Shown: positions 197 to 62,305 of the stretch, in pieces | Layout: every line of letters begins with the position of its first letter | Position numbering within the stretch: the first letter of the stretch is position 1 | Virus record (IMG/VR): IMGVR_UViG_3300009146_000015 | Span: 1-62,362 of that record | Strand: one strand, 5' to 3' | Source of the DNA: a virus | Taxonomy: Duplodnaviria; Caudoviricetes | DNA length: 62,362 bases | The notes under the pieces: model-generated | Seen by the model: only the letters and a program-made list of their open reading frames with translations | Database searches by the model: none | What the model was told of the DNA's origin: nothing | Position numbers and translations under genes: made by a program

Positions 197-3100
197 GCGC
201 TGGCTGTCATGGTTGAACAGGCGATCGTTGAGGACGACATAGCCCTCGCCCGGCGTGCTCTCGTCCCGCATGTGGACATAGATGCCGTCGTACATCTCGC
301 CGGGCGCGACGCTGTACTGGCCACCGAGAAAGTTACGCAGGTCGGCGTCGCTGACGACGTAGACCTTCATGTCGCCGATCGCAGACGTCAGCCGGTTCTT
401 GAGGAAGGTCAGCGCGCTCTTGCGACCTTTGACCCCGCGCGCGGCGTCGCCAAGCTTGAGCTCGGCCAGCATGTCGCGGACGTTACTGTCCTGAAGTATG
501 CGCGAGAAAGTGCGACCACCGGGAATGTAGGGGCTCGCCAGCCAGCCGCCTTCCGGTCCCGCCTCGCGCCGCTCCCTGGCTTCCTCGGCACCGACCGTCC
601 CCTTTTTGGCGGCAGGCGGCTCGAAATCCGGCAGCGGCTCGTTGAGCTCGGCTTCAGTTTCGGTCTCTCCCTCGGTTTCGGTCTCCTCGTCGGGTTCGAT
701 CTCCAGCAGCTCGTCGACATCGATATTGACTTCGTTCTCGTCGCTGACCGTATGCAGCGGGATCTTCTCGATCTCCTTGACGATTGCGGCGTCAGCTTTG
801 GTGTCGACCACACCGATGTCGCGGTTCGGCTGGCGCGGTGCCTGCGCCTTGCCCTTGCGGGCGATCTCCCAAAGGTCGTTCAGCTGCCGTGATGCCGACT
901 GCTCCACCGCCTTCTGGCTGTTGTTTACAAAGGTGTTAGCGGTGCCAGTAGATTTATCCGATATGGCCTTCGCCATCTTCATCAGGCCGCGACCGCCACG
1001 CCGCGATGTGACCCCGGCAAAGCGCTTCTGCTGCTGCTCGGCAAACGCTTTGGCAGCGGCTTCCGGGCTGGCGTCCTCCTCTTCCTTCCGTAGCCGCTCC
1101 TTCTCCGCCAGTGCAGCCAGTTTAGCAGTAGTCTTCTCCTTGGCGCGCGCCGTCGCCTTCTCCATCGAGACACGGCGCTGTGCTGCCGCCTTGCGCTCGG
1201 CGTCGGTCTGCGGCCGCACCTCCTTCGGGTTCTCGCGGTAGTACTTGTCCTCCGCCATACGGGCTTCGCGTGCCGCCAGAGCAGTGACGAAACGCTCGTG
1301 CTCCTGACGAGCGCGGGTCGCCCGCAGTTTTACTTGCCGGGGGGTCAGCTCGGTATCCGACTTGACCTTCAGCCACGGCGGCACCGCCTTGCCGAGCCGG
1401 GCGAACTTGCTCCGCAGGCGCTTAAGCGCGGCCTGCATGTCGTTGTGCGCCACCAGTCCGGTGACGTTGCGACCCTCGTCCTTCCGCTCCTGCGCCCGCA
1501 TGCTGTCGTCGCGCGGCTTGGGAGGGGGCTCCGCACGGTGGGCGCGGCGTTCAGCCTCAAAGTCGGCGTTATACGGTATCGGCTCGCCAGTCGCTTCCGA
1601 GTACTCGACGTCTTCCGCGATCTCGACGTCGGTCATCTCCGGTGACGCCTGATCAGCGGCAGCCGGTTTTTCCTTCGTCCTTTGCCGGCTCTTGCCCTGC
1701 TCCTGCGCCCGCTCGCGCGACGGATCGACGTCCGTCCTGCCCGCCGCCCGCGCATCACGCAGCTCGCTCTCAGCCGCCAGCCACTCCTCCAGCATCTTCG
1801 GCGGGAACGGCCGGCTGTTCTTGTTGACAATGCGGTCGAGCTTGATCGCGTCCACCAGCCAGCTGTGCGTGCCCTTCAGTCCCTTGGTGCGGTACTTCTT
1901 GGGGAACTGGAATTTTGGGCCGAATTCCTTCTTACCGGCAGCCCGCACCCGGTCGACGTCAGCGGCGATGGCAGCGATACGGCGTTTCTGTCCGTCGATG
2001 TCCTTCGGGTCCTGGGCCTTCTTGGCGTGCCGATCGAACACCTCGTCAGCCCGCTCGACGACCGCGGCGTTGCGCGCCGTCTCGCCCGTGTTGGTGTCGA
2101 CCGGCGGCGGCAGGTTCTTGAGCTCGGCCGTGGCTTCGGCAGCAGCTTCCGGTTCACCGATCCGCTCTAGGAGCTCGAGTTCCTTGCGGCGCCGGACGAC
2201 CTCCGTGGTCCGCAGGCCGCGCACGCTCGTACCGATTTTCTTCTCCATCGCCCGCGACGTTGCGCGCCGCTCGGCGATATCCTCCTCGTCCTTGCTCTCC
2301 AAAATCCGGTGGAACTTGCCGTCGATGACGAAGCCGTCATAGTAGGTGGCGCTCTGCACCATATCCTTGTCTTTGAGCTTGTTCTCATCGACCACCCGCG
2401 CCCGCGCCTGATTGTGGCTGCCACCCTCGTAAATCCCCCGCGCCTCCTTGATCGGTCCGATATACGCCACGGCCGGGATGCGTTTCGGCGCTTTTGGTTT
2501 GGCTTCCGGCGCCTTTGGACGTGCAATCGGCAGCTTGCTGGTATCGATCGGCGGCAGCTTGCCAGGCACCGGTCCGGTGCGGCGGCGCTTGATCTTCTCG
2601 ACGACGGTGCCGGTCGCCGTAGTCAGCGGCTTTTTGGCCTTGCCCTTTGGCTTCTTGCCCTTGCGCTTGGGGATGCTCAGGATCTCGCGCGCCCGCGGCG
2701 TCTGCTTGTCGGGTACCGGCTCGGGTTCGGCAGCAAGATTGGCTTCGGCTTCGGCAATAGCTGCCTGCCGTTCGTCATTGGACATCCACGGCTCAGCCGC
2801 CAGTTCGGCAGTTGCTGCAGGCGGCGGCGCTGCTTTCTTCCCGCGCTTCCCCTTGGCCGGGGGCGCAGGAGCTTCGGCCAGCTCGGGGCCAGCCGTCGGC
2901 GCAGTATCCGGCACTGCGATTGGCGGCGGTGCTTCGACCCCGAAACGCTCCCGCATCTTGGTCAGCCGGTCGCGGATTAGCGCTTCGATCTCGGGTGTGA
3001 TCGGACCCGACGGCAGGCCCTCGGTGACGAAGTCCTCCATCGCCGCCCGGACTTCGGGGATTTCGGCGGCGAAAGTTAAATCCAGGGGTTGGTTACTTTC

Positions 3101-4666
3101 AGAAGTAACCTCTGGCGTTGTAGCGGGCGCAGGCGCAGCGGCGGGCGCGGCAGCTTCCGGCTCGGTCAGCAGCTCGACGTTCGACGTGGTGTCCGCAACC
3201 GGGGTCGAAGTCGACGGCTTGCGCTTCGGCGTCTCGATGATTTCAGTGGCGCTCGGCGCTCCGGGTACCGGCTTGATCGGCGGCGGTGGCGCAGTGCCGC
3301 TTGCCGGAACGCCGGGCGCGGCAGCATTGTCGGAAGGTTCAGGCGGTAGCGGCGGAGCGGGGCGCGCGCCCTCGGTACCGATTGGCGTCGGTGCCGGCGG
3401 ACCGCTGCTCTCACCAGTCAGCGCCGCCACCAGCGCCGGATCGACGCCGGGGGGCAGGCGATTGGCGGGGGGTTCTGGCGGCAGTGGTGGCGCAGCACCA
3501 GCTTTTGGCGGTGTCGCCGCTCGCTTCTTTGGCGGGGGCGCAGCCTGGCGCGAGGTCGTAGCGCCACCGGGCGACGATGGCGCTTCATAAGGCGACCACG
3601 GTGCACGTTCGACGGTCTGGTCGGGGACGGTGATACTCGGACCGGGCGGTGAGATCGGCGGGCCGACTTCCACGTCCTCCGGGATTTCCGGAAAACTGAA
3701 CGGCCCGTATTTCTCACGGGGAGAGCGAACGTCCTCGGTCTCCTCGATATCGACCGCACCCGGACGACCTTCGGGGAAGACGCCAGCACCAGCGCCAAGC
3801 ACGCTGCCGATCACGCCACCGGCCAGCGCCGCCTCGACCAGACGCTGGTCGTCGTACTCTTCCTGCAGCCCGGTCTCGACGCGGGTTGCCTGCATCGCCA
3901 GTTCTTCAGCGGTGTTCTGGATCGCCTCCTCGCCGCCCGACTGTCCCATTGCCGAGCCGACGCGGCGGATCAGTCCCTTGCGCGCCTCGCCAGTTACCGC
4001 ACCGGCAGTCCCGCGCTGGCCGATCTTGGAGACGATCTGACCGCCAGCGCTGAACCTCGCCAGCGCCGCGGTGACTACGGCAAGAGCGATGGGCTTGGCT
4101 CCGACCGCCAGCCGCTTGAACTCGCGCCGCGCCTCCTGCGGTGACAGGCCCCCGGCGATCAGCGACTGGTAGAGCTTGTTGCCGTCAAGGTTCTGGTTGT
4201 CCAGATCCTTGACCATGTCGTTGTAGGTGATGCCGGCACTGTGCACTCCGGCCAGGCCGGAGTTGAGTGCCAGCGCTACCGTAGGTCCCGAGACGATCGC
4301 GGCGGCGACACCGGCAGCGATCGGTGCGGCGGTGTTGGCGGTGTTGAGCAGCAGGTAGTCGAACTTGTGGTTCCAGAACGTCTCATCGCCGACCCTGGCC
4401 GACATGATCCGCTGCGCTGCCGGAGTGTTGGCGCCGCGGATGTCTTCACCCAGCTCGAACAGACTGTCAGCCAGTCCCTGCGATATATACTCGAGATCGC
4501 GCGCCATCGGGCTGTCGCCCTGGCTGGCGCCGTAAGCCACCATTGAAGGGACTGACCCGGCAAGGTCGGTGACGCTAGCAACGGCAGTGCGGCCGACGTC
4601 GCCCCAGGTCGCCCCCTGAGCTGCCTCCCGTCGTTGCGCTAGGCGTTCCTGTAATGCACTGGCCAT
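173..4666 (-). CDS. N-terminal ~1,498 aa of a giant virion/ejection (polyvalent-type) protein; absent from the ORF track because the frame runs off the window edge
   Basis: ATG at 4666 (MASALQERLAQRREAAQG...), 2 nt after the upstream stop; reads through to ...RVTESILHE at the junction repeat, in frame with 58685-62305. Confidence 0.8.
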
Positions 4667-4668: not shown

Positions 4669-7600
4669 TCAGTTACCGGTTGGTGGCGCGATCGGATGCA
4701 GGCGCTTGTACTCCTCGGGGGTGGTGTACCTGTCTTCCATCTGCTTCTTCCACACACTTGGCGGGGGTGGTAGCGCCAGCGCGTCGCCAACCGCCCCGCC
4801 AATATCGACTGCGACCTCGCCGACATTAGCCATTGCTGCAGCCAGCCAGTCGTCAAGGTTGAGCTCACCCGGCTGCGGCTGCCTGACGATCTTCTTGACC
4901 AGCGGGTCGAGCATCTTCTCGACGAACCCGGGCTGCGCGGCTTCGGCTTCCGGGGTGACCGGACTGGTCGGCAGGGCGCCAGTCGTCACCTTGGTGGCGT
5001 AGCTGGCAGCGCCCATATCGATGTAGCGGTCGGCGTCTTCCCGCCACGCCTGTGCCAACGGATCGAACATCGAATTGGGGATGTGACGGATCGCGCCATC
5101 CGGCCGACCCTGTCCGTTCAGCGGCTGCACCAGCATGACCCCGGGGTTGTTGGGGTGCGGCCACGCCCGCCAGTCCGGCACGGAAGGATTGGCCGGATTG
5201 GCGAGGACCATCTCCGACGCCAGCTTGATCGCCGACGGCATGGACGAGCCGTTGGTCTTGGCGATTAGCTGTGCAGCATCGCCGATCAGCGTCTGCTGGT
5301 TTCGCAGCTGCTTCGCCTCTCCCTTGGTCAGCGGGGCTTCCTCGTCCGTCTCCAGATCGCTGATATACTTGTCGACATCATCGGTAATGCCGACAACCTC
5401 CTCCTTGTAGAGATCGCGCGGTACCGGCTCGATCGCCGCGAGCTGACGGTCGAACTCGGTCGACCGCTTCGTCCGCAGTTCCTTCCACGCCTCCTCGGCC
5501 CGTTCCGCCTTGTAAAGCAGGTTCTTCTGATACTCCTCGGGTAGGCCAAGCAGGCTGTCAGGGTTGAAGCTCGGCTTCGGCGGCATGTTGAAGCCGTCCG
5601 GACCATCGCTCGGACCGGGCGGCAGGACCGGCTGCAGGGCCGGCGCCAGCCATGGACGCTCCTGCTGCGCCCGCACGACCGGGCCCTCGTCGCCCAGCCA
5701 GCCACCCTGAAGCCCGGTCGGCGCGCCAGAGCCTGCCGGCTTCTCTTCTGGCTTGGCACCCGCCTGCCGAACCAGCCAGTCGTAGTACGCCGTCTGGTGC
5801 TGTGCCAATTCGCGATTGTAGGCGGCAACGTCCTGCTTGTTCTTTGCCTCCGACAGGTCGAGGCCGAACGACGGATCCCGCGCACTGGTTGCCTTGTACA
5901 GATCGATGTCGGGCGGTGGGCCAAGCCCGAACGTCTTATCCTTGCCGGGCGCGCGGACACCGGGTGCAACTTCCAGAGGCTTACTTTCAGAAGTAACCAA
6001 CTTGTCGCTGCCGATCAGCGTATCGTCGCTTACGTCACTATCGACGTCGAGCGCACTGGTCGGCTTGGGTGCTGCTGGCGTAGCTGCCGGCGTGGCAGGC
6101 GTGGCCGCTGGCGTGGCTGCCGGAGCTTCGGCGGGTCCAAGTATCTGCTCGACGGTTTCGCGCTGTGCAGCCGCCGCAGAGCCGCCTGTGGTATCGGTCC
6201 AGATACGGACGCTCTCGTTGAACGCCGTATTGTAGATCTGCTGCTCGTCACCGTCGAGCTCTGCCGTCGCCAGCGCGTTGTAAGCTGGGCGCTGGTCGGG
6301 CGGCACGGCGTCGAGGTCGGCCAGCAGCTTGGTCAGCTGCGGCGACGCCTCGGGCAACTCATCCTCGCCTGCCGCCTTGACGAGGAACTTGTCCACGTCG
6401 CCGGGCGACATGTTGAGGATCATGCCGGTCATCTCTTGCGGCGTCAGCACCTTCTCGGTGATGACCTTGCCGGTTTCCTCGTCAGTGTAGCGCACCGTGT
6501 AGCCGGTGGTGGCGTCACCCTGCACGTCGAAGTCCCGACCGTCGGGGATCTGGGCGTAAGCTTTGACCGCCGCCTCGACTGCCTTCTCAGTGTCGCCTTC
6601 GCCAAGCGCCGCCTTGGCAATCGCCGAGTACTGGTTGTAGCGGACCTGATTGTACTGAATGTATGACGCAGCGATTGCCGCGGCCTTCTCGGGGTCGCGC
6701 AGCACCCAGTATCCGTACAAAAGGCCAAGGGTCCGCTGGTTGAGCTCACTCTCGGTCAGCTCGACGTCGTTCTGCTCCGCCCACGCCCTGACGACGTTCT
6801 GTGCCTGGGCGACCTGCGACTGACCCATGGCGTACTTGCCAGTCAGCTTGGCAGTGGCGGCGTCGGGCATGTCGTCGTCCGGCGCGGCATCTTCCGCCAG
6901 ATCGGTATCGTCGACGCCCTCGCCGAACAGGACGTTCGACAGCCAGTTGCTGCCGGCCAGCGCGCCGCGCTTGCCGTCGGTAAAGGTGTCGTTGGCAGCC
7001 TCGCGCCCGTCCGGACGCCTGACATGCCCGGTCGGTCCGATGTCCCACGCGTCAGTGACCTCGCGTATCGAGGTCTGGGCCGGACCCAGTTCGTTGTCGC
7101 CAGCCGACTGACCGACAAGAGCGTCAGTAGCCGCTGCGCCCTGCAGTGAAACACCTTCCTCGCTATCGCCGGGATTGAGGACGCTATCCTCGACCGCCCG
7201 CGCTCGACCAACACCTTCCTGCAGAGTACGTTCGAAAGCTCTGGTTGCTACATCCGGATCAGTAGCCGTGCCGAGAATGCTCGAACGGTAATCCGACGTC
7301 CGCTTGCCGATCTCAGCCGGCCCCATCACGTCGTCGACCGCACCGGTCGGACGCGCTTCGACCGGGCGAACGGTCTCGGTCGGCGTGTAGCTACCGGTGC
7401 CGCCAGTGGCGTGCGACAGCTGCTGGATCTTGACGTCGAGCGCCTGCATCATGGCGTCGCGGGTTGCCGGCGGCATGGTCAGATCGGCTTCGACCTCACG
7501 GCGGCGATTGAGCGCCCGCTGCAGTTCGGCTTCCGGCTCGTCTGAAGTCGGCGTGTAGCTGTCGGGCGGCAGCGCGCCGGGTCCGCCAGCTGGACGCACC

Positions 7601-9441
7601 TCACCGGGAGGATTGTCATACGGGGTATAGCCCTCAACCGGACGCGGCGGCGGGTTGGGCACCGCCATGGTGTTGGCCGTCGACGACGTCATCGGGTTGG
7701 CTTCGGCAGGCGGCTCCTCGTCAACCGCCACCGCGCCGTCACCGCGCATTCGAGGGGTCGGTATGTCGGCTTCCTGCAGACCCTCCGGGATGACCAGCTT
7801 CTGCTCGGGATAGATCAGGTCGGGGTTAACGATCTGCGGGTTGGCGGCTACAATCTTGAGGTAACTTTCGAGATTGTAGCGGTTGGCCAGGTCCCACAGG
7901 GTGTCGCCCTGCTCGACCTCGTGCACGGTGTCGCGCTTCGGGGCGATCGGCACGCCGGCACCACCAGCTGCGATATCGACCGGCGACGCCGCAACCGGCT
8001 CAGGCTCGGGAGCAGCCAGCTCGTCATCCTTGGTCCGCGCTTCCGGGTATGACGGCGCCATCTCGTCGTCGAGCACGCCACCCCGCAAATTGTCGCCGCC
8101 TACCCGGCCGGCTACTCCGCCACCACCCTCGCCAAGCGGCGCGGAAACGCCCAGAGCGCGCGCACCGTCGAGTCCGGTACGATTTCCCACCCCGACCTTG
8201 GCCGCGCCGTACCACGCCCCCCAGCCATTCTCGGCAGCCTTGTCGAGCGCAAAGTCGATCTGGCGATAGACGGTGCGCGGGTCGCGCGGGTCGCCGTAGC
8301 CCTTGGCGATAAACTCGTCGCCCAGCCCGCCACCGACCAGCAGTTGGAACGGGCCGTAGGATGTCTCGCGCTTGCCGTCCTTGACGTAGTTCGACTGCCA
8401 GACGCCGGGAGCCAGACCCTCCGACCGCGCCACCCTGACCGCAACTTCGGGATCGATGCCACGGGCGCGCGCCGCCCGTCGAATGTAGACCTCCGGATCA
8501 ATCTGTCCGTCGCCACCCGCGGGAAAGCCGTCACTCCCAGCGCTGCCAACCAGAAAGTCGTCAGAGCTCGATCCGTACAGCTTGCCCGACTGGAACGCAG
8601 TGAGGAATTCCCTGTCGGCCGGATTTCTGAAATTGCGAGCGCTCGGCCCCTTGAGGACACCACCGGCTCCCCACACCGCCGACGGACGACCACCGCCGCC
8701 ATAGCCGATGTGCAGCGAACCGCCGGGGTAAAGACCGAAGCGGTTGGCTCCGACCCGTCCGCCGGCCATGGCGATGATGGCGCGTTCTCGCGGGTTCCAC
8801 TTGCTACCGTCCTGGTGGTAGCCGACCAGATCGACTTCAGTACCTGCAGCGTGGCTACGATGGCCGCCACCCTTGCCTGCGGTAACCACCAGCCGGATAC
8901 CCATCTGCTGGGCCTGCATACTGACCGCATCCATGATCTTGAGGGCGCGCGGCTGCATGCCCCGCCACGAGGTCCGGTCCTTGATGGCAACGTCGTAGGG
9001 AGTGTACGACCTCCGCCCACCGCCCAATTTGTCGCGGCTCGTGCCACCGGCCAGGGTGTCAGCGCCAGTGCCACTAAGGTCGCTGTCGTCAAGCGCCGCC
9101 GTCTTGGCCGATACCGACTTCACCTTCGGCCCTGAAGCGAGATCGACGGCGCCGGCACCTGCACCAGTCACCACCGTCGCTCGGGCGGCGTCACTGGGCC
9201 CGGACGTGGTGCCGGGTGTCTTGTCGAGCGGCTCCCATCCCTCTGTCGCAGTTGTGAGCCAGTCACCGAACTCGATCTGCGGTCCCATGATTTCGGCAGT
9301 GCGGGCGCGGGTCCACTCAATGGTGGCGCGGCGGTGCTCGTTATCGAGCCGGGCAGCCTCCCGCGACGAGCGTGTCCCCAGTACGTTGGACATAGCGCTG
9401 AAGGCGCTCGTGAAGTCTTTCATTTCCTGAGCGAAACTCAT
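4669..9441 (-). CDS. Internal virion/ejection protein with cell-wall domains (peptidase M15-like, lysozyme/SLT-like, LysM)
   Basis: HRSHAAGTEVD...LHIG; RAARARGIDPEVAVRVARSEG...SYGPFQL; HEVEQGDTLWDLANRY...NPQIVNPDLIYPEQKLVIP. Confidence 0.75.
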   Translation of the reverse strand: MSFAQEMKDFTSAFSAMSNVLGTRSSREAARLDNEHRRATIEWTRARTAEIMGPQIEFGDWLTTATEGWEPLDKTPGTTSGPSDAARATVVTGAGAGAVDLASGPKVKSVSAKTAALDDSDLSGTGADTLAGGTSRDKLGGGRRSYTPYDVAIKDRTSWRGMQPRALKIMDAVSMQAQQMGIRLVVTAGKGGGHRSHAAGTEVDLVGYHQDGSKWNPRERAIIAMAGGRVGANRFGLYPGGSLHIGYGGGGRPSAVWGAGGVLKGPSARNFRNPADREFLTAFQSGKLYGSSSDDFLVGSAGSDGFPAGGDGQIDPEVYIRRAARARGIDPEVAVRVARSEGLAPGVWQSNYVKDGKRETSYGPFQLLVGGGLGDEFIAKGYGDPRDPRTVYRQIDFALDKAAENGWGAWYGAAKVGVGNRTGLDGARALGVSAPLGEGGGGVAGRVGGDNLRGGVLDDEMAPSYPEARTKDDELAAPEPEPVAASPVDIAAGGAGVPIAPKRDTVHEVEQGDTLWDLANRYNLESYLKIVAANPQIVNPDLIYPEQKLVIPEGLQEADIPTPRMRGDGAVAVDEEPPAEANPMTSSTANTMAVPNPPPRPVEGYTPYDNPPGEVRPAGGPGALPPDSYTPTSDEPEAELQRALNRRREVEADLTMPPATRDAMMQALDVKIQQLSHATGGTGSYTPTETVRPVEARPTGAVDDVMGPAEIGKRTSDYRSSILGTATDPDVATRAFERTLQEGVGRARAVEDSVLNPGDSEEGVSLQGAAATDALVGQSAGDNELGPAQTSIREVTDAWDIGPTGHVRRPDGREAANDTFTDGKRGALAGSNWLSNVLFGEGVDDTDLAEDAAPDDDMPDAATAKLTGKYAMGQSQVAQAQNVVRAWAEQNDVELTESELNQRTLGLLYGYWVLRDPEKAAAIAASYIQYNQVRYNQYSAIAKAALGEGDTEKAVEAAVKAYAQIPDGRDFDVQGDATTGYTVRYTDEETGKVITEKVLTPQEMTGMILNMSPGDVDKFLVKAAGEDELPEASPQLTKLLADLDAVPPDQRPAYNALATAELDGDEQQIYNTAFNESVRIWTDTTGGSAAAAQRETVEQILGPAEAPAATPAATPATPAATPAAPKPTSALDVDSDVSDDTLIGSDKLVTSESKPLEVAPGVRAPGKDKTFGLGPPPDIDLYKATSARDPSFGLDLSEAKNKQDVAAYNRELAQHQTAYYDWLVRQAGAKPEEKPAGSGAPTGLQGGWLGDEGPVVRAQQERPWLAPALQPVLPPGPSDGPDGFNMPPKPSFNPDSLLGLPEEYQKNLLYKAERAEEAWKELRTKRSTEFDRQLAAIEPVPRDLYKEEVVGITDDVDKYISDLETDEEAPLTKGEAKQLRNQQTLIGDAAQLIAKTNGSSMPSAIKLASEMVLANPANPSVPDWRAWPHPNNPGVMLVQPLNGQGRPDGAIRHIPNSMFDPLAQAWREDADRYIDMGAASYATKVTTGALPTSPVTPEAEAAQPGFVEKMLDPLVKKIVRQPQPGELNLDDWLAAAMANVGEVAVDIGGAVGDALALPPPPSVWKKQMEDRYTTPEEYKRLHPIAPPTGN

Positions 9442-9465
9442 CGACGGTTACTTTCAAAAGTAAGA

Positions 9466-12745: not shown

Positions 12746-12763
12746 GTTACTTTCGAAAGTAAC
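12746..12763. promoter_or_regulatory. Perfect palindrome GTTACTTTCGAAAGTAAC (archetype of the motif family)
   Basis: Occupies almost the whole gap between two structural genes. Confidence 0.8.
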
Positions 12764-14010: not shown

Positions 14011-14012
14011 GG

Positions 14013-47863: not shown

Positions 47864-47878
47864 AGGGAGACCACCCAC

Positions 47879-53257: not shown

Positions 53258-54021
53258 TGCAGTGGTTCTGGACGGCTTACGGGGCGTCGATTGCCGGTTT
53301 GTTATTGTGCTGGAACGGCGTCCCCGTGGTCCTCAGTCGCACGCGCTACCAGAGCCTGCTTCGTGCGGCGGGGGAGCGGCAGCAGGAGCGCGGCTACAGT
53401 CCAAACAAGCAGGATCTAACCGACACCGGGATGCTGTTCCGCAAGCTGTGGCGGCACCCGCCACAATACACGCTGCTGCCGTTCGAGTACCTCGAAGCGA
53501 TCGCGACCGAAGACAAGATGATCGTGTTCCTCGTCCACAACGGCCAGCCGGCGATGTTCGAGGACGACCTGCACCTGTTCCCCAGCGACAAGCTGATCAA
53601 CGCTTTGAGGTTACTCCTATGACAGCGCGAGGATACGAGGAAAAAACCAAGCTGACGCCGGATGAGAAGCTGCGGGTTGCCTTTGGCTACCTGTGCCTTG
53701 GCATGAGCCAGCACCAGCTTGTCGCCTTGTTCAACGTCAATCCAGGGCGGATCAACGACGCCATATCCGACGTGCGTGAGGTTCTGGACTGGCCTAAGCC
53801 TGAAAAGGACGAGAACAATGACTGAATTATGGATCCACACGCGACACTGCCCGAACTGCGACGACGTCGAACTGGCAACCAACGTCGTCGATAAGGATGG
53901 ACGGGTCCACACCTGGTGCAATTATTGCGGCCGGACGCTTAGGAAGTACGATGAGAACGGTGAACTGGAATGGGAGGATACAGAGTGGGCTGCCAACGAA
54001 AGACCAGACGTTACTTCCTAA
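53257..54021 (+). CDS. Three small genes: 53257-53622, 53619-53825 (HTH-like) and 53818-54021 (Zn-ribbon)
   Basis: Coupled starts; MSQHQLVALFNVNPGRINDAI; CPNC...CNYC. Confidence 0.6.
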
Positions 54022-54046
54022 AGTAATCTACCCACAGGAGATGATC

Positions 54047-54605: not shown

Positions 54606-55455
54606 ATGACCAACGATACGATCCCTACCCAGATGAACGTGCAGCTGCTCGGCAACGGCACCGTGATCCTGATGTCGGTTCACGTCAGCAGCGAGATGAA
54701 CACCAACTTCGTCATCGGTGCCGACAAGCTGGTGGTCATGCTCGAGGAGCTGATCAAGAAGGCGTCGGACTATCCAGACTCGCCGCTGTCGCGGATCACC
54801 GTCCGCCCGCTTGAGACGCTGGTCTATGGAGGCGACAAATACCACGGGGGCGAAACACCGTGAATTGGATCGACCGCGCCTTGAATGCCGAAGCTCAGCT
54901 TGCCACTGCGATGGAGGAGCGAGATCTCGCACAAGCCCATTACGCCGGGCTGCAACGGGACCTAGCTGAAGCCAATGATGTGATCGGCTGCCTCACAGCC
55001 CTTGCCTCCCAGCTTGCCCCCTATGAAGCCCGCACCAAGAAGCTCGAAGCAGTGCTGCGGCCGTTTACATTCCCGGACCATCCCGAGAAGTTCACCAGCG
55101 CGGAAGGTGGTTGCACGGAAGTTATTATTGCGGACGAGCAGGTGCAAATCGCCCGCGCCACCCTTGGAGAGAAGCCATGACTGGCGAAGGCGAGTGGATG
55201 CGCCGGGCGGAAGAGGCCGAAGAACTGTCTCGTCGCTACGGGCTTGAAGCCGAAAAGTACGAGGCGGCGCTGCAGCGGATAGTCCAGTGGGCGGACGCCT
55301 ACCCACTGGACGTTTTCCCCGAACCGGACTTCGCCAAGGCGCACGAACTGCTCAAGGCAGGTGGGATGACGCTGGACGCAATCAGCGCCAGCAACATGCG
55401 ACACGTTATCGAGGGCGTCGGCAAGATCGCGCGCGACGCCCTCGCTCCCGACTAG
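54606..55455 (+). CDS. Three small hypothetical proteins (54606-54863, 54860-55180, 55177-55455)
   Basis: RBS and GTGA/ATGA coupling. Confidence 0.55.
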
Positions 55456-56174
55456 AAGTCGAAGTCGCCAGCGTCGAGCGATCCGATCTTCCGGCGACCG
55501 CACAGAATGCTGTCTCCACCGCCAAGGTCGATCAGTATGTTGTTTCCGACCTGCGTCATGTCGAGGTCGCCGAAGCTGGTGACATCCGTTCCCGACAGAT
55601 CGAGCTTGTCCCGCTTGGTGAGCCGGATCACGTCGTTGCCGTCGCCAGTGGCAAAGACGTAGAGGTCGGCTTGCCTGCCGCCTGCGAGGGTGTCGTCACC
55701 GAGCCCACCGATTACGGTATCCCTGCCTCTGCCGCCGAAGATGTAGTCGTCACCGCCAAGGCCGAACAGCGTGTCATTGCCGCCGCGACCGCTGATGATG
55801 TCGTTCAGTTCGGTGACCGGGTTCCAGTAATCGGCGTCGATCAGATTGGCCTTGCGCGTGCCGATGATGAAATTGCCAACGGTGTCGTTGGCGTTGGTTC
55901 CCGGAGTACCAGCAGGGCCAGCAGGGCCAGCAGGACCAGTAGGCCCAGCAGGGCCAGCAGGTCCAGGTTCTCCATCCTTACCCGGTGGACCGGCGGGACC
56001 AGGCTCCCCATCTTCGCCCGGCGGGCCGGGCGGGCCGGGCGGCCCTGCGGGTCCGGGGTCCCCATCTTCACCGTCCTTTCCGGGTGGTCCAGCAACACAT
56101 TCCTCGTCCTTGGTGTGGTCCTTGGTGCAACCGTCCTCGTGGTCCCAGTCCCAGTCCCATTGGAAATAAGTCAT
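55452..56174 (-). CDS. Collagen-like (Gly-X-Y) plus RTX Ca-binding repeat protein
   Basis: About 21 Gly-X-Y triplets, then [46 protein letters not shown]. Confidence 0.85.
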
Positions 56175-56212
56175 CGCTTAACTCCCTATCGCGATATTGA
56201 CGCCTGACGCTA

Positions 56213-56485
56213 CTACTTGTCGCCGCCGTTACGCCAGCCACGGTTCTTGCTCTTGTGCAGGGGCTTGAGGTTGGACCGGACGGTCTTTCCCCCTGCGCGG
56301 TGCCCCTTGATGTGAGCGGCATCGCGTGGGTCGCCCTTTTTCAGGCCCAGCATCTTGCGGGCCTTGTTGTCCTCATCGCGGATCTTGATCCGCTCCGGGC
56401 GAGCGTCGTAGCCCCGGTTCATGCGCTTGATCTGCCCGGGCGTACGATGGCTCGACGGGTCGCGTGTCTCCCCCTTCTCCGCCAC
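56213..56485 (-). CDS. Small HNH-like endonuclease
   Basis: DAAHIK...GGKTVRSNL.....KNRG. Confidence 0.6.
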   Translation of the reverse strand: MAEKGETRDPSSHRTPGQIKRMNRGYDARPERIKIRDEDNKARKMLGLKKGDPRDAAHIKGHRAGGKTVRSNLKPLHKSKNRGWRNGGDK

Positions 56486-56831
56486 CTACATCTTCCTCTT
56501 GCTGTAGTCCTTCGACGGCGCCCGGCCAGCTGGTGTCAGCTTCTTAGCGCTCGGCGTGCTGCCGATATCCTTGCCAGGACCGACGATCCCGATCGTGCCG
56601 CCAAAACGATGGGCAGGCTTCGCCTTCTTCGCTTTCTTCTTATTCGCCATAGTTACCTCCAAAGTAATCAATCTATTTTTCGCTCTTTTTGCCTTTGGGG
56701 GTCAGCTTTTGCGTCCCCTTCTTAAGCTCCCCCGACTTCTGCAGCGTCGACGTCGCGATCGCATACGCTTCCTCCCGGCTATGACCCTTGGCCCTCAGCT
56801 GCTGCACCAGTCGCTCGAGGATCTTCGGCAT
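56486..56831 (-). CDS. Two small basic proteins (56486-56650 and 56673-56831)
   Basis: GGAGG RBSs; Lys-rich. Confidence 0.55.
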
Positions 56832-56844
56832 CAGAAGCTTCCTC

Positions 56845-57048
56845 CTACGGCAGCGCCACGCCAAGCCCCGGCAGGATCGCCCGCAGTATCCAGAGTATTG
56901 CTAAGAGCGCAAAGACCACCCAGATCGCTTGCACCACCTTGGCCGGTATCTGCCAGCCGATGACCGTGGCAAACACATAAAGCACCAGCCAGACGACAAT
57001 GGCTGCGACGACAATGTAGATCAACGCAATGAGAACAGCCTCGATCAT
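56845..57048 (-). CDS. Two-TM membrane protein, holin candidate
   Basis: 67 aa, almost entirely hydrophobic, near the endolysin. Confidence 0.55.
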   Translation of the reverse strand: MIEAVLIALIYIVVAAIVVWLVLYVFATVIGWQIPAKVVQAIWVVFALLAILWILRAILPGLGVALP

Positions 57049-57148
57049 CGTTCCCTCCTGTAAAAAGCGAGGCGGTTCCGGTCACGGGTGACAGCGCTTC
57101 CCCCGAGGGTATGAGACTTCAGGGGGATTTGGACGCGCCTTTCCCGCC

Positions 57149-57511
57149 TCAGTTCTGTGGCGTCACCTTCGGCGCCGCATTGACGATTTCCCAGTCGACC
57201 GCCAGCAAGTCGGTCTGTGAGCACAGCCACGGCACCACCGAACCGTCTGCCGTCTGCATGTCGACGTGAGGCTGGTAGTTGATCTGGGTTCCTACCTCGT
57301 AGTGGGCAGCCATCGGCCGGCCCTCGCTGACGGCAAAAGTCGATCCCGGCACCAGGAACAGGAACATCCCCCTGCCGTTCCAGCCGCGCCGAGCAACGGT
57401 GGCACCGGCCAGCAGCTGTTTCACCGCCCAACCGATGCCACCGCGCTCCGCGGGGGCCTCGGCCGCGGCACGGAATTTGCGCTGGTCTTCCTCGAAGTGC
57501 TCCCTCGTCAT
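57149..57511 (-). CDS. DUF2829/Tad2-like protein (putative immune-signal sponge)
   Basis: VARRGWNGRGMFL...YQPHVDMQTADG.VVPWLCSQTDLLA.DW. Confidence 0.8.
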   Translation of the reverse strand: MTREHFEEDQRKFRAAAEAPAERGGIGWAVKQLLAGATVARRGWNGRGMFLFLVPGSTFAVSEGRPMAAHYEVGTQINYQPHVDMQTADGSVVPWLCSQTDLLAVDWEIVNAAPKVTPQN

Positions 57512-57522
57512 TGTTCTCTCCC

Positions 57523-58206
57523 TCACATGAAGCTCTGAACGTGCCGGCGAAACTCGTCGCAGACCTCGGTCTTGCTCAGCCCCGACGACCACGGCAGCTT
57601 GGTGATGTCCCATTTGCCGTTCTGCGGCACGCCCTGGTTCGACTGCCACTCGCCGTGCTGCATGATCTTGTAGCGGTCGTTGGGGATCTTGTAGCGGATC
57701 GCGAGCTCGGCAGCGCACTTGGCCAGCGTCATCCACTGCAGCTCGGTCAGCGGGTATTTGCCGGCGTTGAATGGGCTCTCAACCGCACCTGCCATGCATG
57801 CTGCAGCAAGGCCAATATTCTTGGTGTTGGCTTGGTTGGTGTGGGCGGCATAACCGTCGGCATCGCTGGTACTGACGTTGGCCTTGATCGAGTAATCGCC
57901 TCGCACCAGTCGACCGCCTCCATCGACGATGATGTGGTAGTGCTCCTTGTCGGCGCTTGAAACCTCATAGGCACCCGCGCTCCAATGGGTGGTGATGTAG
58001 ATCATGGTGCATTCGGGCATCCACTCGATCGGAATGATCTGTCCTTCGGGCGGCGGTGGCGGCTCCTTGTCGAGGTCCATGCCGGTGTTAAACCAGCCCT
58101 TGGTCGCACCCTCGGTTGACGGTCCCCACAGCCCGTCGGCGCCGTAAGCGCCACAGGAAAATCCGTGGGCAATTAATTTCTCCTGAAAGGCTTTGGGCGT
58201 AAGCAT
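57523..58206 (-). CDS. Endolysin: peptidoglycan-binding domain plus N-acetylmuramoyl-L-alanine amidase
   Basis: FQEKL...GADGLWGPST; HWSAG, YHIIV, AAHT..ANTKNIG, QHGE. Confidence 0.85.
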   Translation of the reverse strand: MLTPKAFQEKLIAHGFSCGAYGADGLWGPSTEGATKGWFNTGMDLDKEPPPPPEGQIIPIEWMPECTMIYITTHWSAGAYEVSSADKEHYHIIVDGGGRLVRGDYSIKANVSTSDADGYAAHTNQANTKNIGLAAACMAGAVESPFNAGKYPLTELQWMTLAKCAAELAIRYKIPNDRYKIMQHGEWQSNQGVPQNGKWDITKLPWSSGLSKTEVCDEFRRHVQSFM

Positions 58207-58272
58207 TTGACCCCCTTGTTACTTTTAGAAGTAACGGGCCGGAGAGGTCGGTGGTCTCCGGCCCGCACCCTG

Positions 58273-58647
58273 TTACCGCTTGCCGCGCCCTTCGACGTTG
58301 GGGTCATACTCGGGCTCGGGCGGTACAAGTGCTTCTGCTTCCTCACCAAGCGCTGCCGCTGCGGCATCGCGGGTCTCCTTGGCCTTGGCTTCTGCCGCGT
58401 CGGCGTTGGCGTCACTCGCCTGGTTCTCCGGCCAGCTCCGCTCCGCGGTGGCGGCGTCCTGCCGCAGCTTGTCGCGGGTCGACTGCTCGGCGTAGAGGCC
58501 GATATGGGCGTTGGCTTCGTTGGCGTCGTGCGCCGCCTTGGCGGTGTTCTTCGCCTCGCGCTCTGCCGCCTCGGCATCGCGTAATGCCTTGGCCTTCTCC
58601 TGAGCTTCGCTCTTGGGTTCAGCCTGGGCCGGTCCGATATCGCTCAT
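58273..58647 (-). CDS. Ala/Glu-rich hypothetical protein
   Basis: GGAGG RBS before MSDIGPA. Confidence 0.6.
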   Translation of the reverse strand: MSDIGPAQAEPKSEAQEKAKALRDAEAAEREAKNTAKAAHDANEANAHIGLYAEQSTRDKLRQDAATAERSWPENQASDANADAAEAKAKETRDAAAAALGEEAEALVPPEPEYDPNVEGRGKR

Positions 58648-58684
58648 CGCTTTCCTCCATGTTAAACACCAGTTGTCCACTTAC

Positions 58685-61600
58685 TCACCGGGCGTTGTAG
58701 ACGCCTTGAGCCCTCTCTAGCACATAACGGTTGGCCCGGGTCGGCCGAACACCGCTTTCCATCTCCTCAATTTCCGACGACCGCCGGCTGGTGTAGGCCC
58801 TCAACGCAGCATTAGTCAGCTGTGCATCCTTCGGCTTACCGCGATTGAAGCGCTCGATCCGGCCTCGCATGCGGACACGCTCTCTGGATGAAGCGTCAGC
58901 CCATGCCCGCTGCAGCTCTCCCCGCTCCTTGTTGATGGCAGTCTGGCTGGCGTAGAACTGCGCCTTGAGATCCTGATCCTCGGCCTCGCGTTCCGGTGTG
59001 GCACCGAGCACCCGGATGAACATCTCCGAGAACGAATAGGGATCCATCGACGGGCGACCGGTGCGGGTCTCCTTGCCGAACGCACCAACGTCAACGGCTT
59101 TAATCAGATCCTTCAGCGCCTTGACCGGCGCCAGTTTCGGCAGCGCTGCCGAATAGTCACCGTCGATCAGCTCCCGTGCCCCTTGCCCGTAGTCGTAAAG
59201 CATCATCCCGGGCGCGCCGATCAGCATGTCCTGCAGCCAATTCTTGACGTCCTCGGGATCGCCGGAAGTCGGCTCGCGGGCAAGGAACATGTCGGCCATG
59301 CCGACGCGCTGCGACATGTCGAACGCCAGCCCGAACGGCAGGGCGCGGGTGATGCCACGGGTGACGACTTCACCCAGGTCGGGCCCTAGCAGGTCCGCTG
59401 CCAGTTCACGTTCGGCATTCTCGAAGTCCTGCCAGCTGAACGGCACGCCCAGCATCTGCAGTCCGAGGACCATCGCCTTGATCGGCTCTGTCGGCAGCCC
59501 GAGCGTGCCGGCCATCAGAGTGTGAGTGGCGGCGATATAGGCCAGCGACTTCAGCGCCTCGGCGCGATCGCCGGGGCTCTCGTTGCGCCACGCCCGGCCA
59601 ATCTGTTGACCGAGCAGCTGGTACATGGCGTGACCGAAGCGCTTGAACTGGAACGTCACCTTGAGCAGCGGGTGATTGAACAGTCGGGGTGCGTTAACCT
59701 CCGAATAATTGAAGTTGGTCATGTTGTTGGTGTCGTCGGCGTACTGCAGCGCGGCTTCGTGGTTGCCGCCATTGGCCGCGTACTCGAGCCGATATGCGGC
59801 GAGCAGGACGGCAGCGCGGTTGATCGCCTCGGCCGACGACGGCATCTGCCGGGTGATCTGCTCCAGCCAGTTGAGCGCGGTATCGGTTGCTTCCAGCGAT
59901 TTCGCAGCGACGCCACCCTGCGGCCGGCGCAGCCGCTGCCGTTTGGAAATCTCCAGTCCGCCGCGGAAGTCGAGGAACTGGAAGACCTCAGCCTCGCGTT
60001 CGAGTATACCCGCGCGACTGGTTAGGTCCTCGATGAAGGTGGCGCTTTCGGCATCCGGATTTTTCGCCTTCTTCCACGTCTCAACGGCCCCACGCTTGGC
60101 CATGTCGAGCGCGCCAATATCCTTGTAAGCCTTGCCAAACGCCCGCACCGTCGGCGCTACCTTGTGGCGAGCAGCAACCACCGGCATCGACACCATGCTG
60201 ACCTGCATCAGGTTCATGATGGTGTACATCGGCGAGCCGAGCCGAGCGACGAACGAAGCGGTAAGGATGCGGGATACGAATGGCGAGTACCACTGGCTGT
60301 CGTGGACAAAGCCGTTGCCCTTGTCGACGCGCTTGACGACTTCGTTCCAGATCGCCCGCCGCCCGAGCGCCCCGGCACGATGACCAGCGTCGATCGACTG
60401 CTGGCCGTCACGCATGACCTGGTTGAGCTCCTGCGCGTGCTCCAGACGGGCGAGGTAGCTGGCCGTACTGTCAGCGTAGTCGATCATCGCCCGGGTGATA
60501 TCCAGCGACGCGCCGCTGACGCTGCGGCGTGCGATCCGGCGCTTGTGGACGCGGGTCGAGCTCATCATCTGCAGCCCGAACTCCTGCGCCGCCAGACGGA
60601 GCTGGTTCTGCATCTCCTTGGGCATATCCTTGTAGCCCTGCCGCTTCTCCAGCGACTTGATCATCAGGCTGACGTCGGCAGACGAGATGTCGATGCCGCG
60701 GTCGCCGGGCGACCACTGGCGCTCCTGCACACCCTCGACGCTCTCAACGTCGGGGTCACTCTCCAGCTCATGGGCTTCCCGGAGCGCCGTCGCCTTGTCA
60801 TCGAAGAACTCGACGTGGTCCTCCTGCACCTCGGTGCGGAACACCCGGACAGCGCCGGGGTCCTTCATCGTGATCTTGACGCGGCTGCCCGGTGCCTCGC
60901 TGTCGTCAGGCAGAATGTCCCAGCTCTCGCCGGTTTTCTCGTCGACGGTGGTGCCGCTGACCCAGGCTTTTTCCTTGGTCGCAGCGGCGTATTCCATCGC
61001 CCGCTCGCGGGCGTCCTTGCCGCGGAACTCGTAGACGTTGGTGGTACCCTCCTTGAGCGTCCCCTTGAGCCGGGCAGCGGGCGCGGCAACCTTGAGCTTG
61101 GCCCGCACCACCCACTTGCCGCGCCGCATCAGCGGGAAGTACGGCCCGAGCATATGGTAGAGCTCCTTGGCCCGGACGATCCGGGTCAAAAGCTCGGGGT
61201 TGCCCTTGAACAGCGCCTTGTCGGCGTCGGTCATCTCCTTGCCGAGGATGCGATCGACCAGCCCCTCGTCGATATCCTTAGCGTCGATCTCGCCGCGGAA
61301 GCCCTCGACCAGCATGTTGTGCACCAGAAGGTGCGACATCAGGAACTGGCGCTCGCGCATGAAGTCATGCAGGTCGTGGCGGAGCTCGTCGAGATACGGC
61401 GCTGCGTCGATAATCTCGGCATACTCGCGCGACAGCTCGGCATACTTGGCCCGCGCCTGCACCCCCTTCAGCGTCGGATTGCCAACCGGGTCCTTGCCAA
61501 GATGCGTCTGGGCGGCAAGCGGCTGGTCGACGAAGACGTTGGCGTTGGTCTCATCGTTGATCAGCTGGGCGAACCGCGACCACATCTCACGCCCGGCCCG

Positions 61601-62305
61601 CTTCTCGGCATGCACCATGCGGTCGATCAGCGCCTCGGCCATCTTCTGATTACGATTGGTCTGCCGGATGATGTTGGTCAGGATCCGGTAAACCCGCCGC
61701 ACCGGGTTGTCCTTGCTTCTCCAGTAGCGGTCGGCAGTGCGGGCGAGCTGATCGAGCCCCGCCAGCATCAGCGCCTTGGGCACCCGCATCTGCTCCTGCC
61801 GGCCCTCGCCCGTGTAGCTCTCGTAGATATCGCGAGTGACGCGCCTCGCGGTCTCACGTGGTGAAATCTTAGCGTGGACAGTGACCTCGCTGTCCCGCGC
61901 TGCCGCTGCCGCCGTCTCCGCTTTGGCGGTCAGGCGTTCGGTGGCATGCATCACCGCGTCGAGCACCGACAGATCGTTGCCAAGCTTGCCGATGGTCTTA
62001 CTTACGAAAGTAACAAATGCCTGCCACGCGTCCGCCAGCGTGCCGCGCTTGATCCCCAGCTGCCGTGCCATCCGCTTCGACAGCGGGGTGCCGGCAAGCA
62101 GCTCCTGGAATGCCGGGTTGCTCATCGCTTCGGCGACGAACTCGAACACGTCGTTGAAGCCGTAGTGCTTGGACGGATCGACGATGCCGTGGTGGCGGAT
62201 AACGTCGCCCATCAGGGTCTCAAGATAGGCCCGCAGGCGCGGATCGCGCTTGATCCCGGCGATTGTCGCTCCGTGCACGAACTCGTGGAGGATGCTCTCG
62301 GTGAC
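58685..62305 (-). CDS. C-terminal ~1,200 aa of the same giant protein; zincin HExxH motif and a helical C-terminal region resembling LPD-type domains
   Basis: ILHEFVHGAT followed by EFVAEAMSNPAFQ, typical of the MPTase zincin domain in phage polyvalent proteins. Confidence 0.75.
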   Translation of the reverse strand, partial: VTESILHEFVHGATIAGIKRDPRLRAYLETLMGDVIRHHGIVDPSKHYGFNDVFEFVAEAMSNPAFQELLAGTPLSKRMARQLGIKRGTLADAWQAFVTFVSKTIGKLGNDLSVLDAVMHATERLTAKAETAAAAARDSEVTVHAKISPRETARRVTRDIYESYTGEGRQEQMRVPKALMLAGLDQLARTADRYWRSKDNPVRRVYRILTNIIRQTNRNQKMAEALIDRMVHAEKRAGREMWSRFAQLINDETNANVFVDQPLAAQTHLGKDPVGNPTLKGVQARAKYAELSREYAEIIDAAPYLDELRHDLHDFMRERQFLMSHLLVHNMLVEGFRGEIDAKDIDEGLVDRILGKEMTDADKALFKGNPELLTRIVRAKELYHMLGPYFPLMRRGKWVVRAKLKVAAPAARLKGTLKEGTTNVYEFRGKDARERAMEYAAATKEKAWVSGTTVDEKTGESWDILPDDSEAPGSRVKITMKDPGAVRVFRTEVQEDHVEFFDDKATALREAHELESDPDVESVEGVQERQWSPGDRGIDISSADVSLMIKSLEKRQGYKDMPKEMQNQLRLAAQEFGLQMMSSTRVHKRRIARRSVSGASLDITRAMIDYADSTASYLARLEHAQELNQVMRDGQQSIDAGHRAGALGRRAIWNEVVKRVDKGNGFVHDSQWYSPFVSRILTASFVARLGSPMYTIMNLMQVSMVSMPVVAARHKVAPTVRAFGKAYKDIGALDMAKRGAVETWKKAKNPDAESATFIEDLTSRAGILEREAEVFQFLDFRGGLEISKRQRLRRPQGGVAAKSLEATDTALNWLEQITRQMPSSAEAINRAAVLLAAYRLEYAANGGNHEAALQYADDTNNMTNFNYSEVNAPRLFNHPLLKVTFQFKRFGHAMYQLLGQQIGRAWRNESPGDRAEALKSLAYIAATHTLMAGTLGLPTEPIKAMVLGLQMLGVPFSWQDFENAERELAADLLGPDLGEVVTRGITRALPFGLAFDMSQRVGMADMFLAREPTSGDPEDVKNWLQDMLIGAPGMMLYDYGQGARELIDGDYSAALPKLAPVKALKDLIKAVDVGAFGKETRTGRPSMDPYSFSEMFIRVLGATPEREAEDQDLKAQFYASQTAINKERGELQRAWADASSRERVRMRGRIERFNRGKPKDAQLTNAALRAYTSRRSSEIEEMESGVRPTRANRYVLERAQGVYNAR
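62282..62305 (+). repeat. 24-bp direct repeat, right copy (circular junction)
   Basis: Identical to 173-196; followed by a low-complexity A/C-rich tail. Confidence 0.95.

Follow-up and report, generated by a model that had tools for sequence, protein, structure and literature searches.

A palindrome, GTTAC-N7/8-GTAAC, dispersed and selected for throughout a clade of podovirus-like phages: a likely DNA-level recognition system with a candidate early protein as binder

What keeps dozens of copies of one short palindrome in place along a phage genome, both between and inside genes, and what reads them? The question is raised by the IMG/VR record IMGVR_UViG_3300009146_000015 (Caudoviricetes), which was analysed as a whole and is called the window here (62,362 bp, rated 100% complete, G+C about 61.5%). 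The palindrome, GTTAC-N8-GTAAC, occurs in exact form 13 times in the window against 0.02 expected (100 shuffles, the largest giving 1), and its exact N7 version three times against 0.01; exact arms at spacers of 4–6 or 9–12 were found nowhere in the window. When one of the ten outer bases is allowed to deviate, the number of hits rises to 35 (28 N8 and 7 N7). One of the N7 hits (54103) reads GTTAC..GTTAC and is doubtful, so that the credible total is 34 (28 N8 and 6 N7), which is exactly the count given by an earlier, sequence-only reading of this DNA that had proposed a genome-wide lattice of such sites.

By PHROG and Pfam scans the window phage is podovirus-like. Its nearest named relatives are the Rhizobium phages RHph_TM29, TM3_14A, TM27A and TM27B, which have the same gene order and a primase 42% identical to that of the window. 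Megablast of 12 kb of the window against the phage collection gave no match, and an IMG/VR search with the window primase returned a single distant locus. Five whole IMG/VR genomes (G001–G005) were picked by a scan with two 14-base versions of the motif followed by site counts per returned locus; they belong to the family of the window, with capsid proteins 63–68% identical, and 19 genes are common to the seven-genome set formed by the window, TM29 and these five. At up to one mismatch, TM29 has 58 sites, with inner arms CCT..AGG versus TTT..AAA in the window, and the five IMG/VR genomes have 85, 28, 45, 43 and 46, the maximum density being 85 sites in 59 kb. The inner base at position 6 of the arm is T in the window and G004 and C in the other genomes. 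Summed over the seven genomes, inverted arms are found 34 times at N7 and 82 times at N8. All remaining spacers between 0 and 40 have counts below 6, as does every everted arrangement.

Such a bipartite layout is similar to that of Type I and IIB recognition sequences, and the sites might be targets of a modifying, nicking or packaging enzyme of the phage, be it a methyltransferase-like protein, the small terminase subunit or a small HNH protein. All seven genomes do encode a conserved TerS-like protein and a conserved 90-aa protein with an HNH-like motif, and the annotation of TM29 includes a methyltransferase. However, instead of the one fixed spacer of Type I/IIB sites, N7 and N8 coexist in each of the seven genomes, and two spacers per genome are unfit for a rigid bipartite enzyme. 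Moreover, no methyltransferase turned up in the window proteins that were scanned, packaging requires one site and not dozens, and the phage nick sites known to us are asymmetric, all of which leaves an enzyme target highly improbable.

After curation of a few start codons, 8 of the window hits lie in genes and 27 at gene boundaries; the in-gene copies reported earlier at 3092, 5980, 24575 (portal), 27290 (TerL), 50015, 51449 (primase) and 61997 were all verified. As a null model for the in-gene copies, synonymous codons were shuffled within each gene 200 times. Sites in coding sequences numbered 9 in the window versus a shuffle mean of 1.4 (1.36; largest shuffle 5), 33 versus 6.4 in TM29, 45 versus 8.4 in G001, 7 versus 2.0 in G002, 30 versus 5.4 in G003, 25 versus 4.1 in G004 and 31 versus 9.2 in G005. 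The excess over synonymous shuffles is thus 3- to 7-fold, and the observed number is above every shuffle in all genomes but G002, where it equals the largest. The sequence-only reading had allowed for in-gene copies being no more frequent than codon-preserving shuffles produce, and they are more frequent: the feature is real, strongly selected and family-wide. N8 sites are barred from frame 1 and N7 sites from frame 2, since TAA would there be read as a stop codon, and among the permitted frames frame 0 (GTT-ACN ... GGT/AGT-AAC) prevails.

The spacing of the sites is even in some of these genomes. The biggest gap in the window is 5364 (12746 to 18110) and the next 3779 (58218 to 61997), which agrees with the ceiling of about 3.8 kb claimed earlier for gaps outside the tail-fibre block, and the coefficient of variation (CV) of the gaps is 0.67 versus 0.96 for random placement (P=0.008). 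Gaps are also even in G001 (CV 0.66, P<0.0002) and marginally so in TM29 (0.80, P=0.05); evenness is absent in G004 and G005, and the sites of G002 and G003 are clustered instead. Compared with random coding positions, in-gene sites fill gaps in the window and G001 (P<0.0005), the other genomes giving no significant effect. As evenness is limited to the window, G001 and marginally TM29, the regular lattice of the sequence-only reading stands for two or three of the seven genomes and falls for G002–G005; the word describes the window and not the whole clade.

Alignments of the 19 core proteins show how the in-gene sites are accommodated. Forty of 104 (38%) are in stretches missing from at least three of the six orthologues, versus 402 of 3990 random positions (odds ratio 5.6, P=6e-14). 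In the polymerase the motif is spelled by a 4-codon insertion in G004, lies on a 7–8-residue loop in TM29 and G001, and is built on a conserved LTW in G003 and G005. The position of most in-gene sites is not conserved among relatives, although columns that recur in distant members exist in the primase (column 845) and the SNF2 protein (columns 91, 170 and 274). Copies borne by lineage-specific insertions, such as that of the G004 polymerase, and positions that are mostly not conserved would also be expected of selfish or recombinogenic mini-elements that spread by insertion, like Rickettsia palindromic elements and repetitive extragenic palindromes, or that mark junctions of module shuffling, with no function for the phage. 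Recombination between repeats is reported for Cluster O phages in the sections consulted of PMC4351075. Nevertheless, this element is just 17–18 bp long with no conserved flanks, no transposase was found among the proteins scanned, many sites arise by codon choice without any indel, and some are held at one column across distant members. The gap-filling in the window and G001 further argues for selection on placement, and mini-elements are an improbable explanation.

At gene boundaries, 18 of the 27 window sites have their end no more than 25 nt from the start codon that follows, 7 of those no more than 5 nt, and 9 of the 27 touch or overlap the preceding stop codon. The exact fit of one site between a stop at 18128 and an ATG at 18109, reported earlier, was checked and is correct. 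The credible sites of the window are as follows, without strand.

3092–3109: N8, exact; in the giant virion-protein gene, frame 0
5980–5997: N8, one mismatch; in a 1590-aa gene (4669–9441), frame 0
9447–9464: N8, one mismatch; fills the gap from stop 9466 to ATG 9441 (minus strand)
12746–12763: N8, exact; overlaps stop 12763, 2 nt before GTG 12743
18110–18127: N8, exact; fills the gap exactly
20019–20036: N8, one mismatch; after the hairpin behind the capsid gene, 11 nt before start 20007
22699–22716: N8, exact; overlaps stop 22716
24575–24592: N8, one mismatch; in the portal gene, frame 0
27290–27306: N7, exact; in the large terminase gene, frame 0
29195–29212 and 29231–29248: two exact N8, centres 36 bp apart; non-coding switch region
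30192–30208: N7, exact; overlaps the first early gene's stop codon; a terminator-like hairpin comes next (30209–30236)
30306–30323: N8, exact; 11 nt before start 30335, within a half-site array
30854–30871: N8, one mismatch; within a second half-site array
31759–31776: N8, exact; 4 nt before ATG 31781, right arm AAGG, a possible ribosome-binding site
32329–32346: N8, exact; intergenic
32764–32781: N8, one mismatch; 4 nt before ATG 32786
33426–33442: N7, exact; intergenic
34173–34190: N8, exact; 22 nt before ATG 34213 (curated start)
35911–35927: N7, one mismatch; 25 nt before start 35953
37207–37224: N8, exact; overlaps stop 37207, 15 nt before an ATPase gene
38445–38462: N8, one mismatch; 3 nt before start 38466, right arm GGAGG
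39555–39571: N7, one mismatch; overlaps stop 39555, 23 nt before start 39595
40923–40940: N8, one mismatch; overlaps stop 40923, followed by a hairpin
42932–42949: N8, one mismatch; shares 10 nt with the 3' end of the DNA polymerase gene
44325–44342: N8, one mismatch; 1 nt before ATG 44344 (curated start)
45724–45741: N8, one mismatch; 14 nt before start 45756
48718–48735: N8, exact; 22 nt before start 48758
50015–50032: N8, one mismatch; in a 354-aa core gene, frame 0; 3 of 6 orthologues have a gap here
51449–51466: N8, one mismatch; in the primase-helicase gene, frame 0; 5 of 6 orthologues have a gap here
54010–54027: N8, one mismatch; about 19 nt before an ATG
56652–56668: N7, one mismatch; between stop 56673 and ATG 56650 (curated start)
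58218–58235: N8, exact; after a hairpin, 11 nt before endolysin start 58206
61997–62014: N8, one mismatch; in the giant gene, frame 0; 5 of 6 orthologues have a gap here

Between genes, the motif is usually directly 5' of a start codon, and in start-proximal sites the right arm shifts from the AAAGTAAC of the window to AAGG, GGAGG or GGGAG, so that this arm doubles as a ribosome-binding site; it looks as if two signals shared scarce space. The capsid-gene boundary retains the motif together with a terminator-like hairpin, in an order that is reversed between the window and TM29, which argues against a promoter. Another short sequence, CCACCCA, is found 24 times in the window against 8.1 expected, 15 of the copies being on the plus strand within 32024–49017; several are in 5' leaders, directly after a palindrome or directly before a start codon.

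The start-codon proximity of the boundary sites is what would be expected of a short mRNA hairpin that hides the ribosome-binding site for translational coupling, or that acts as a processing or stability signal for an RNA-binding protein. The right arm is often AAGG, GGAGG or GAGG and the TM29-type left arm has the complementary CCTC, and 7-bp stems with loops of 3 or 4 nt would account for N7 and N8. Independence of the arms was assessed by shuffling right arms among the sites of a genome and counting Watson-Crick pairs at the inner positions. Such pairs numbered 231 versus 225.6 expected at position 6 (P=0.17), 171 versus 175.1 at position 7 (P=0.77) and 75 versus 88.6 at position 8, with no compensatory covariation at these positions. 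The arms are likewise independent for boundary sites, for in-gene sites, and with or without G-U pairs; in G003, position 7 is C-A in 13 sites, T-G in 13, T-A in 9 and C-G in 8. On the sense strand, A-C mismatches (158) outnumber G-U (117), the hairpin form has 5 reliably paired bp, 3 of those A-T, and no family match was found in Rfam. There was thus no sign on the transcribed strand that compensatory or G-U changes maintain pairing. Moreover, a hairpin leaves the in-gene copies and the gap-filling unexplained, and the sites at 29195–29248 are in a probably untranscribed spacer. Independent arms, no G-U bias, strict geometry, the in-gene excess and insertion-borne copies together make the RNA hairpin quite unlikely, and recognition probably takes place at the DNA level. 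Two half-sites, each read by its sequence and held a fixed distance apart on duplex DNA, are the simplest reading.

The motif is restricted to the phage clade. Among capsid-homologue loci in bacterial assemblies, all nine at 62% identity or more have the motif, at 0.14–0.46 sites per kb, and 34 of 36 at 59% or less are at 0.10 sites per kb or below. Four alphaproteobacterial genomes contain one exact site each (per 4–5.5 Mb), the same site that retrieved the genome, with reversed-pattern controls of 0–8; in five genomes holding motif-less relatives, one-mismatch sites are fewer than in the reversed-pattern control, and a pattern scan of bacterial genomes gave single chance hits only. As host-like genomes are not enriched and the motif is present clade-wide, it belongs to the phages and not to a host regulon. 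The CtrA box, TTAA-N7-TTAA, has the same 11-bp register as TTAC-N7-GTAA, which brings up a box of a host regulator of this kind, exploited by the phage. CtrA sites in alphaproteobacterial phages have been published (as far as PMC9437464 was consulted). However, the alphaproteobacterial genomes examined as host-like show no enrichment, and sister phages with similar hosts use other motifs, so that a host box is hardly credible. The sequence-only reading fared well on these points: its view of the motif as phage-specific and not a simple operator set is supported, no host box was found in the host-like genomes examined, and its symmetric DNA-binding protein is favoured over its RNA alternative by the lack of arm covariation and of G-U bias, by the strict N7/N8 spacing and by the absence of the motif from those genomes.

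Motif-less relatives have dispersed repeats of their own. One with a capsid 59% identical (G010:C12, 20000–80000; L437–L439) contains the palindrome TTGCTC-N4-GAGCAA in 10 exact copies (or 11 if one arm base may vary), 1–7 kb apart over a span of about 40 kb. Another (G013:C1, 59 kb; L434–L436) has a 9-base core ACTACCGTC(G) in 12 copies on both strands, 1–9 kb apart, which is not palindromic. Such turnover of the site sequence between sister lineages fits coevolution of binder and sites. The G010:C12 relative also has 13 oriented copies of CATTCAACC, several just after start codons, where they would encode A-I-Q-P. In the first 50 kb of Pseudomonas phage Rollin (L008), no TTAC-N7/8-GTAA was found, and there are four copies of AAAGGTAG-N7-CTACCTTT.

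With respect to lifestyle, no tyrosine integrase (PF00589) was found in the window or G001; G004 encodes an integrase (L255 4037–5410) beside an HTH_17 protein. Prophages of the clade are integrated in contigs of 239 and 465 kb (G015:C4 and G016:C32), with the integrase 2–3 kb past the primase gene, and one prophage contig (G015) has two prophage copies in tandem, 61,893 bp apart. At least some of the clade is thus temperate, and a role like that of stoperators becomes plausible. In any case, the site-richest genomes, G001 and TM29, are without integrase, so that the role is not limited to lysogeny.

As GTTAC is invariant, the protein that reads it is expected to be conserved across the clade. 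Of six binders proposed by the sequence-only reading, the one encoded at 29323 is conserved family-wide; those at 31204, 34717, 39337 and 42997 have no family-wide homologue, and that at 28416 is found in two of six relatives. The small helix-turn-helix proteins at 31204, 34717 and 39337, without homologues in the six relatives, were accordingly dropped. The protein at 28416–28985 is excisionase-like, and its HTH_17 homologues are in G003 and G004, the G004 copy lying beside the integrase. The best candidate is the following.

29323–30192, plus strand: first early protein (FEP), 289 aa, candidate binder, conserved in the clade

The FEP gene is the first of the early arm and has a positional, alignable homologue in all six relatives, that of TM29 being EVB31_028. 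A FEP profile matches all of five further motif-bearing genomes (both G015 prophage copies included), 12 of 12 in total, and none of five motif-less relatives. The gene's own unit comprises two sites at a promoter-like match, the gene, a site over its stop codon and a terminator, an arrangement that suggests autoregulation. The AlphaFold2 model has an all-helical core (mean pLDDT 67.3), and the best match of the FEP profile to PDB sequences is at E=0.013. Within this one clade FEP co-occurs with the palindromes, and it is tentatively put forward as their binder.

Upstream of the FEP gene, the second site of the switch region (29231–29248) overlaps the -35 hexamer of a sigma-70-like match at 29242–29271; promoter scans were not above chance in the window (5 found versus 4.6 expected) and likewise in TM29 and G001. 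G runs and C runs, including a shared stretch similar to 'cccctgtcca', closely precede the first switch-region palindrome in four genomes:

Window 29120–29194: G/C runs
L006 17630–17674: G/C runs
G001 25145–25166: G/C runs
G003 56975–57055: G/C runs

Downstream of the FEP gene is the densest half-site array (30269–30390; 7 RTTAC/GTAAY in 120 bp), and a second (30797–30917; 6 in 120 bp) adjoins a stretch of 17% G+C at about 30966. Paralogous non-coding units at 30243–30330 and 30793–30880, each behind a terminator-like hairpin, share a CGCGCATTCCCCA..CGA..CCCG stretch followed by the half-site array. An array beside an AT-rich stretch is present in the window (17% G+C) and G003 (12% G+C); none was seen in TM29, G001, G002, G004 or G005.

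SV40 T antigen and papillomavirus E1, which are initiators of superfamily 3 (SF3), recognise their origins by inverted pentanucleotide pairs, and SF3 origins, including the Rep iterons of Staphylococcus aureus pathogenicity islands (SaPI), have inverted penta- or hexanucleotide half-sites beside an AT-rich stretch at a single origin. An SF3 primase-helicase is encoded here as well (50291–53257, 988 aa): it matches DUF927 and helicase chains of SaPI Rep (8tch, E=3.4e-5; 5dgk, E=0.0016) and is conserved in all seven genomes. The palindromes could thus be loading or recognition sites of this protein, the cluster beside the AT-rich stretch being the origin and the dispersed copies serving helicase reloading or priming on either strand. 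The half-site arrays by AT-rich stretches in the window and G003 fit such an origin, and a site spacing of 0.7–2.3 kb is of the order of Okazaki fragments. Yet sites are spread genome-wide instead of being confined to an origin together with its initiator, most of them hug start codons, the array architecture is found in only 2 of 7 genomes, and two of five motif-less relatives keep homologues of the primase-helicase (32–35% identity). We know of no initiator that requires dozens of sites, and an origin-type role is unlikely. Residues 769–875 of the same protein show a weak likeness to the DnaE intein (E=0.034–0.039), which may be a Hint-like insert or chance.

From the sites, their geometry, the selection on them and their restriction to one clade, we infer that a protein binds them, and what that protein and the effect of its binding may be. 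The palindromes would be double-stranded DNA binding sites for a symmetric protein, dimeric or head-to-head, encoded by the clade. The half-sites, each consisting of GTTAC and one or two inner bases that depend on the lineage, would be read independently, at a distance of 7 or 8 bp from each other. Selection would maintain many copies genome-wide, most of them in tiny intergenic gaps in which the right arm is often the ribosome-binding site as well; in long genes, copies would be encoded by codon choice (GTT-ACN..GGT/AGT-AAC) or borne by short insertions into variable loops of the protein. FEP would most likely be the binder, and its occupancy across the genome may mark the phage DNA and damp or block transcription over gene junctions, as the stoperators of Cluster A mycobacteriophages do. 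Taken as a whole, with FEP as binder and genome-wide silencing or marking as its effect, this explanation is given somewhat less than an even chance, and its parts taken separately multiply to less: FEP as the binder and the stoperator-like role are each, on their own, less likely than not, the role being slightly the more doubtful.

Several observations weigh against it. A Foldseek search of the FEP model against PDB gave nothing at E≤0.001 (best E-value 4.2), Pfam recognised no DNA-binding domain in FEP, and look-alikes of the ParB helix-turn-helix in the Atlas have TM scores of 0.30–0.41, below the bar of the tool. All motif-bearing genomes belong to a single clade, so that common descent confounds the association of FEP with the motif. 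A spacer tolerance of ±1 bp is odd for a rigid dimer, and transcriptional roadblocks need neither the observed start-codon proximity nor even spacing. Furthermore, the overlap of a site with a promoter-like match is found in the window only, and not in TM29 or G001. Finally, as TM29 and G001 have the most sites and, like the window, no integrase, a role only in prophage silencing is unfit.

A bolder form of protein binding, to which we give a rather small chance, would be a private 'chromatin code', in which an early protein of novel fold nucleates at evenly placed palindromes and coats, bridges or compartmentalises the phage genome. If this were true, the genome would be marked as self for protection, replication or packaging, under a pressure sufficient to add codons to essential proteins, and sister lineages would have switched codes, as to TTGCTC-N4-GAGCAA.

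Known systems resemble these sites in some features and differ in others. Cluster A stoperators, read by L5 gp71, are dozens of repressor sites, mostly in short intergenic gaps, with one or more operators at the early promoter; they are asymmetric and oriented with transcription, and the repressor is a known helix-turn-helix protein of temperate phages with lineage-specific specificity. The many dispersed copies, mostly at gene junctions (27 boundary sites), the presence of sites in the early control region and a specificity that varies with lineage are shared with the phages described here, whereas the present sites are palindromic, the window has no integrase and no repressor was identified; orientation effects in the window are limited to a C after GTAAC and to coding constraints. 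KorB-OB, ParB-parS, Noc-NBS, SlmA-SBS and MatP-matS are scattered short palindromes, in and between genes, that are read by dimers and mark or organise DNA. Their copy number per kb is far lower than that found here (KorB has 12 sites on the 60-kb plasmid RK2), and Pfam detected no ParB, Noc, SlmA or MatP domain in 33 window proteins scanned, some small open reading frames being outside the scan.

In the portions consulted of PMC4351075, a 17-bp dyad repeat of Cluster O mycobacteriophages, TGTTCGG-N3-CCGAACA, is described with 34 copies, intergenic and intragenic, and absent from the host. Its function was not understood there; the authors doubted a transcriptional role and suggested a dimeric DNA-binding protein (PMC4351075). 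As far as that description goes, it is the closest published analogue, with more than 30 dispersed dyad copies in short gaps, near gene starts and in genes, mostly off promoters and absent from the host. It is nevertheless an analogue and not the same element, being unrelated in sequence, host phylum and virion type. Cluster O repeats have 7-bp arms and a single 3-bp spacer, whereas here 5-bp arms are invariant, two spacers are used and up to 85 copies are found; a measured codon-level excess and copies on protein insertions are likewise particular to the present case relative to the portions consulted. No description of the motif was found in the literature searched, including the main text, as far as consulted, of the paper on RHph phages (PMC8245606), supplementary files being outside the search; PMC13611946, considered as a source, concerns an unrelated phage in the part seen. 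Dispersed dyad repeats in phage genomes are thus already reported and their purpose is not understood. The present clade is a strong and tractable case, with a very large signal, measurable selection on codons and protein loops, a clean boundary between motif-bearing and motif-less relatives, one co-occurring candidate binder, and culturable members in the Rhizobium phages RHph_TM29 (on Rhizobium phaseoli), TM27A/B and TM3_14A. The binder and its role, once found, would show what a phage gains from whole-genome marking and provide a rule by which comparable repeats of metagenomic phages could be interpreted.

The gene layout of the window was assigned by the PHROG and Pfam scans. The minus strand (1–25654 and 55452–62362) has the structural and lysis genes, and the plus strand the terminase, early and replication genes, the main structural and packaging genes being:

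20112–21107, minus strand: capsid protein
23510–25654, minus strand: portal or head-tail adaptor
27035–28483, plus strand: large terminase

Other structural and lysis products are an internal virion protein, a tail fibre and an endolysin, and the replication set includes a family A DNA polymerase, an exonuclease, an SNF2 helicase and the primase-helicase. A giant protein with a DarB-like C-terminus spans the record ends: its gene (1555 + 1225 aa, minus strand, 2–4666 and 58685–62362) is open at both, and as simple joining of the ends leaves the halves one base out of frame, the record was probably cut or permuted within it. An ARAGORN call of tRNA-Leu (3980–4069, minus strand) inside this gene is probably a false positive. 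The 354-aa core protein (49157–50221), for which no match was found in Pfam or PDB sequences, has a cysteine cluster and an acidic C-terminal tail and may be a single-strand DNA-binding protein. The conserved 90-aa protein (56213–56485, minus strand) has a motif like that of small HNH nucleases by eye and a weak PHROG match, and in several of its orthologues a palindrome is placed over the G-x-T-x-x-G-N stretch.

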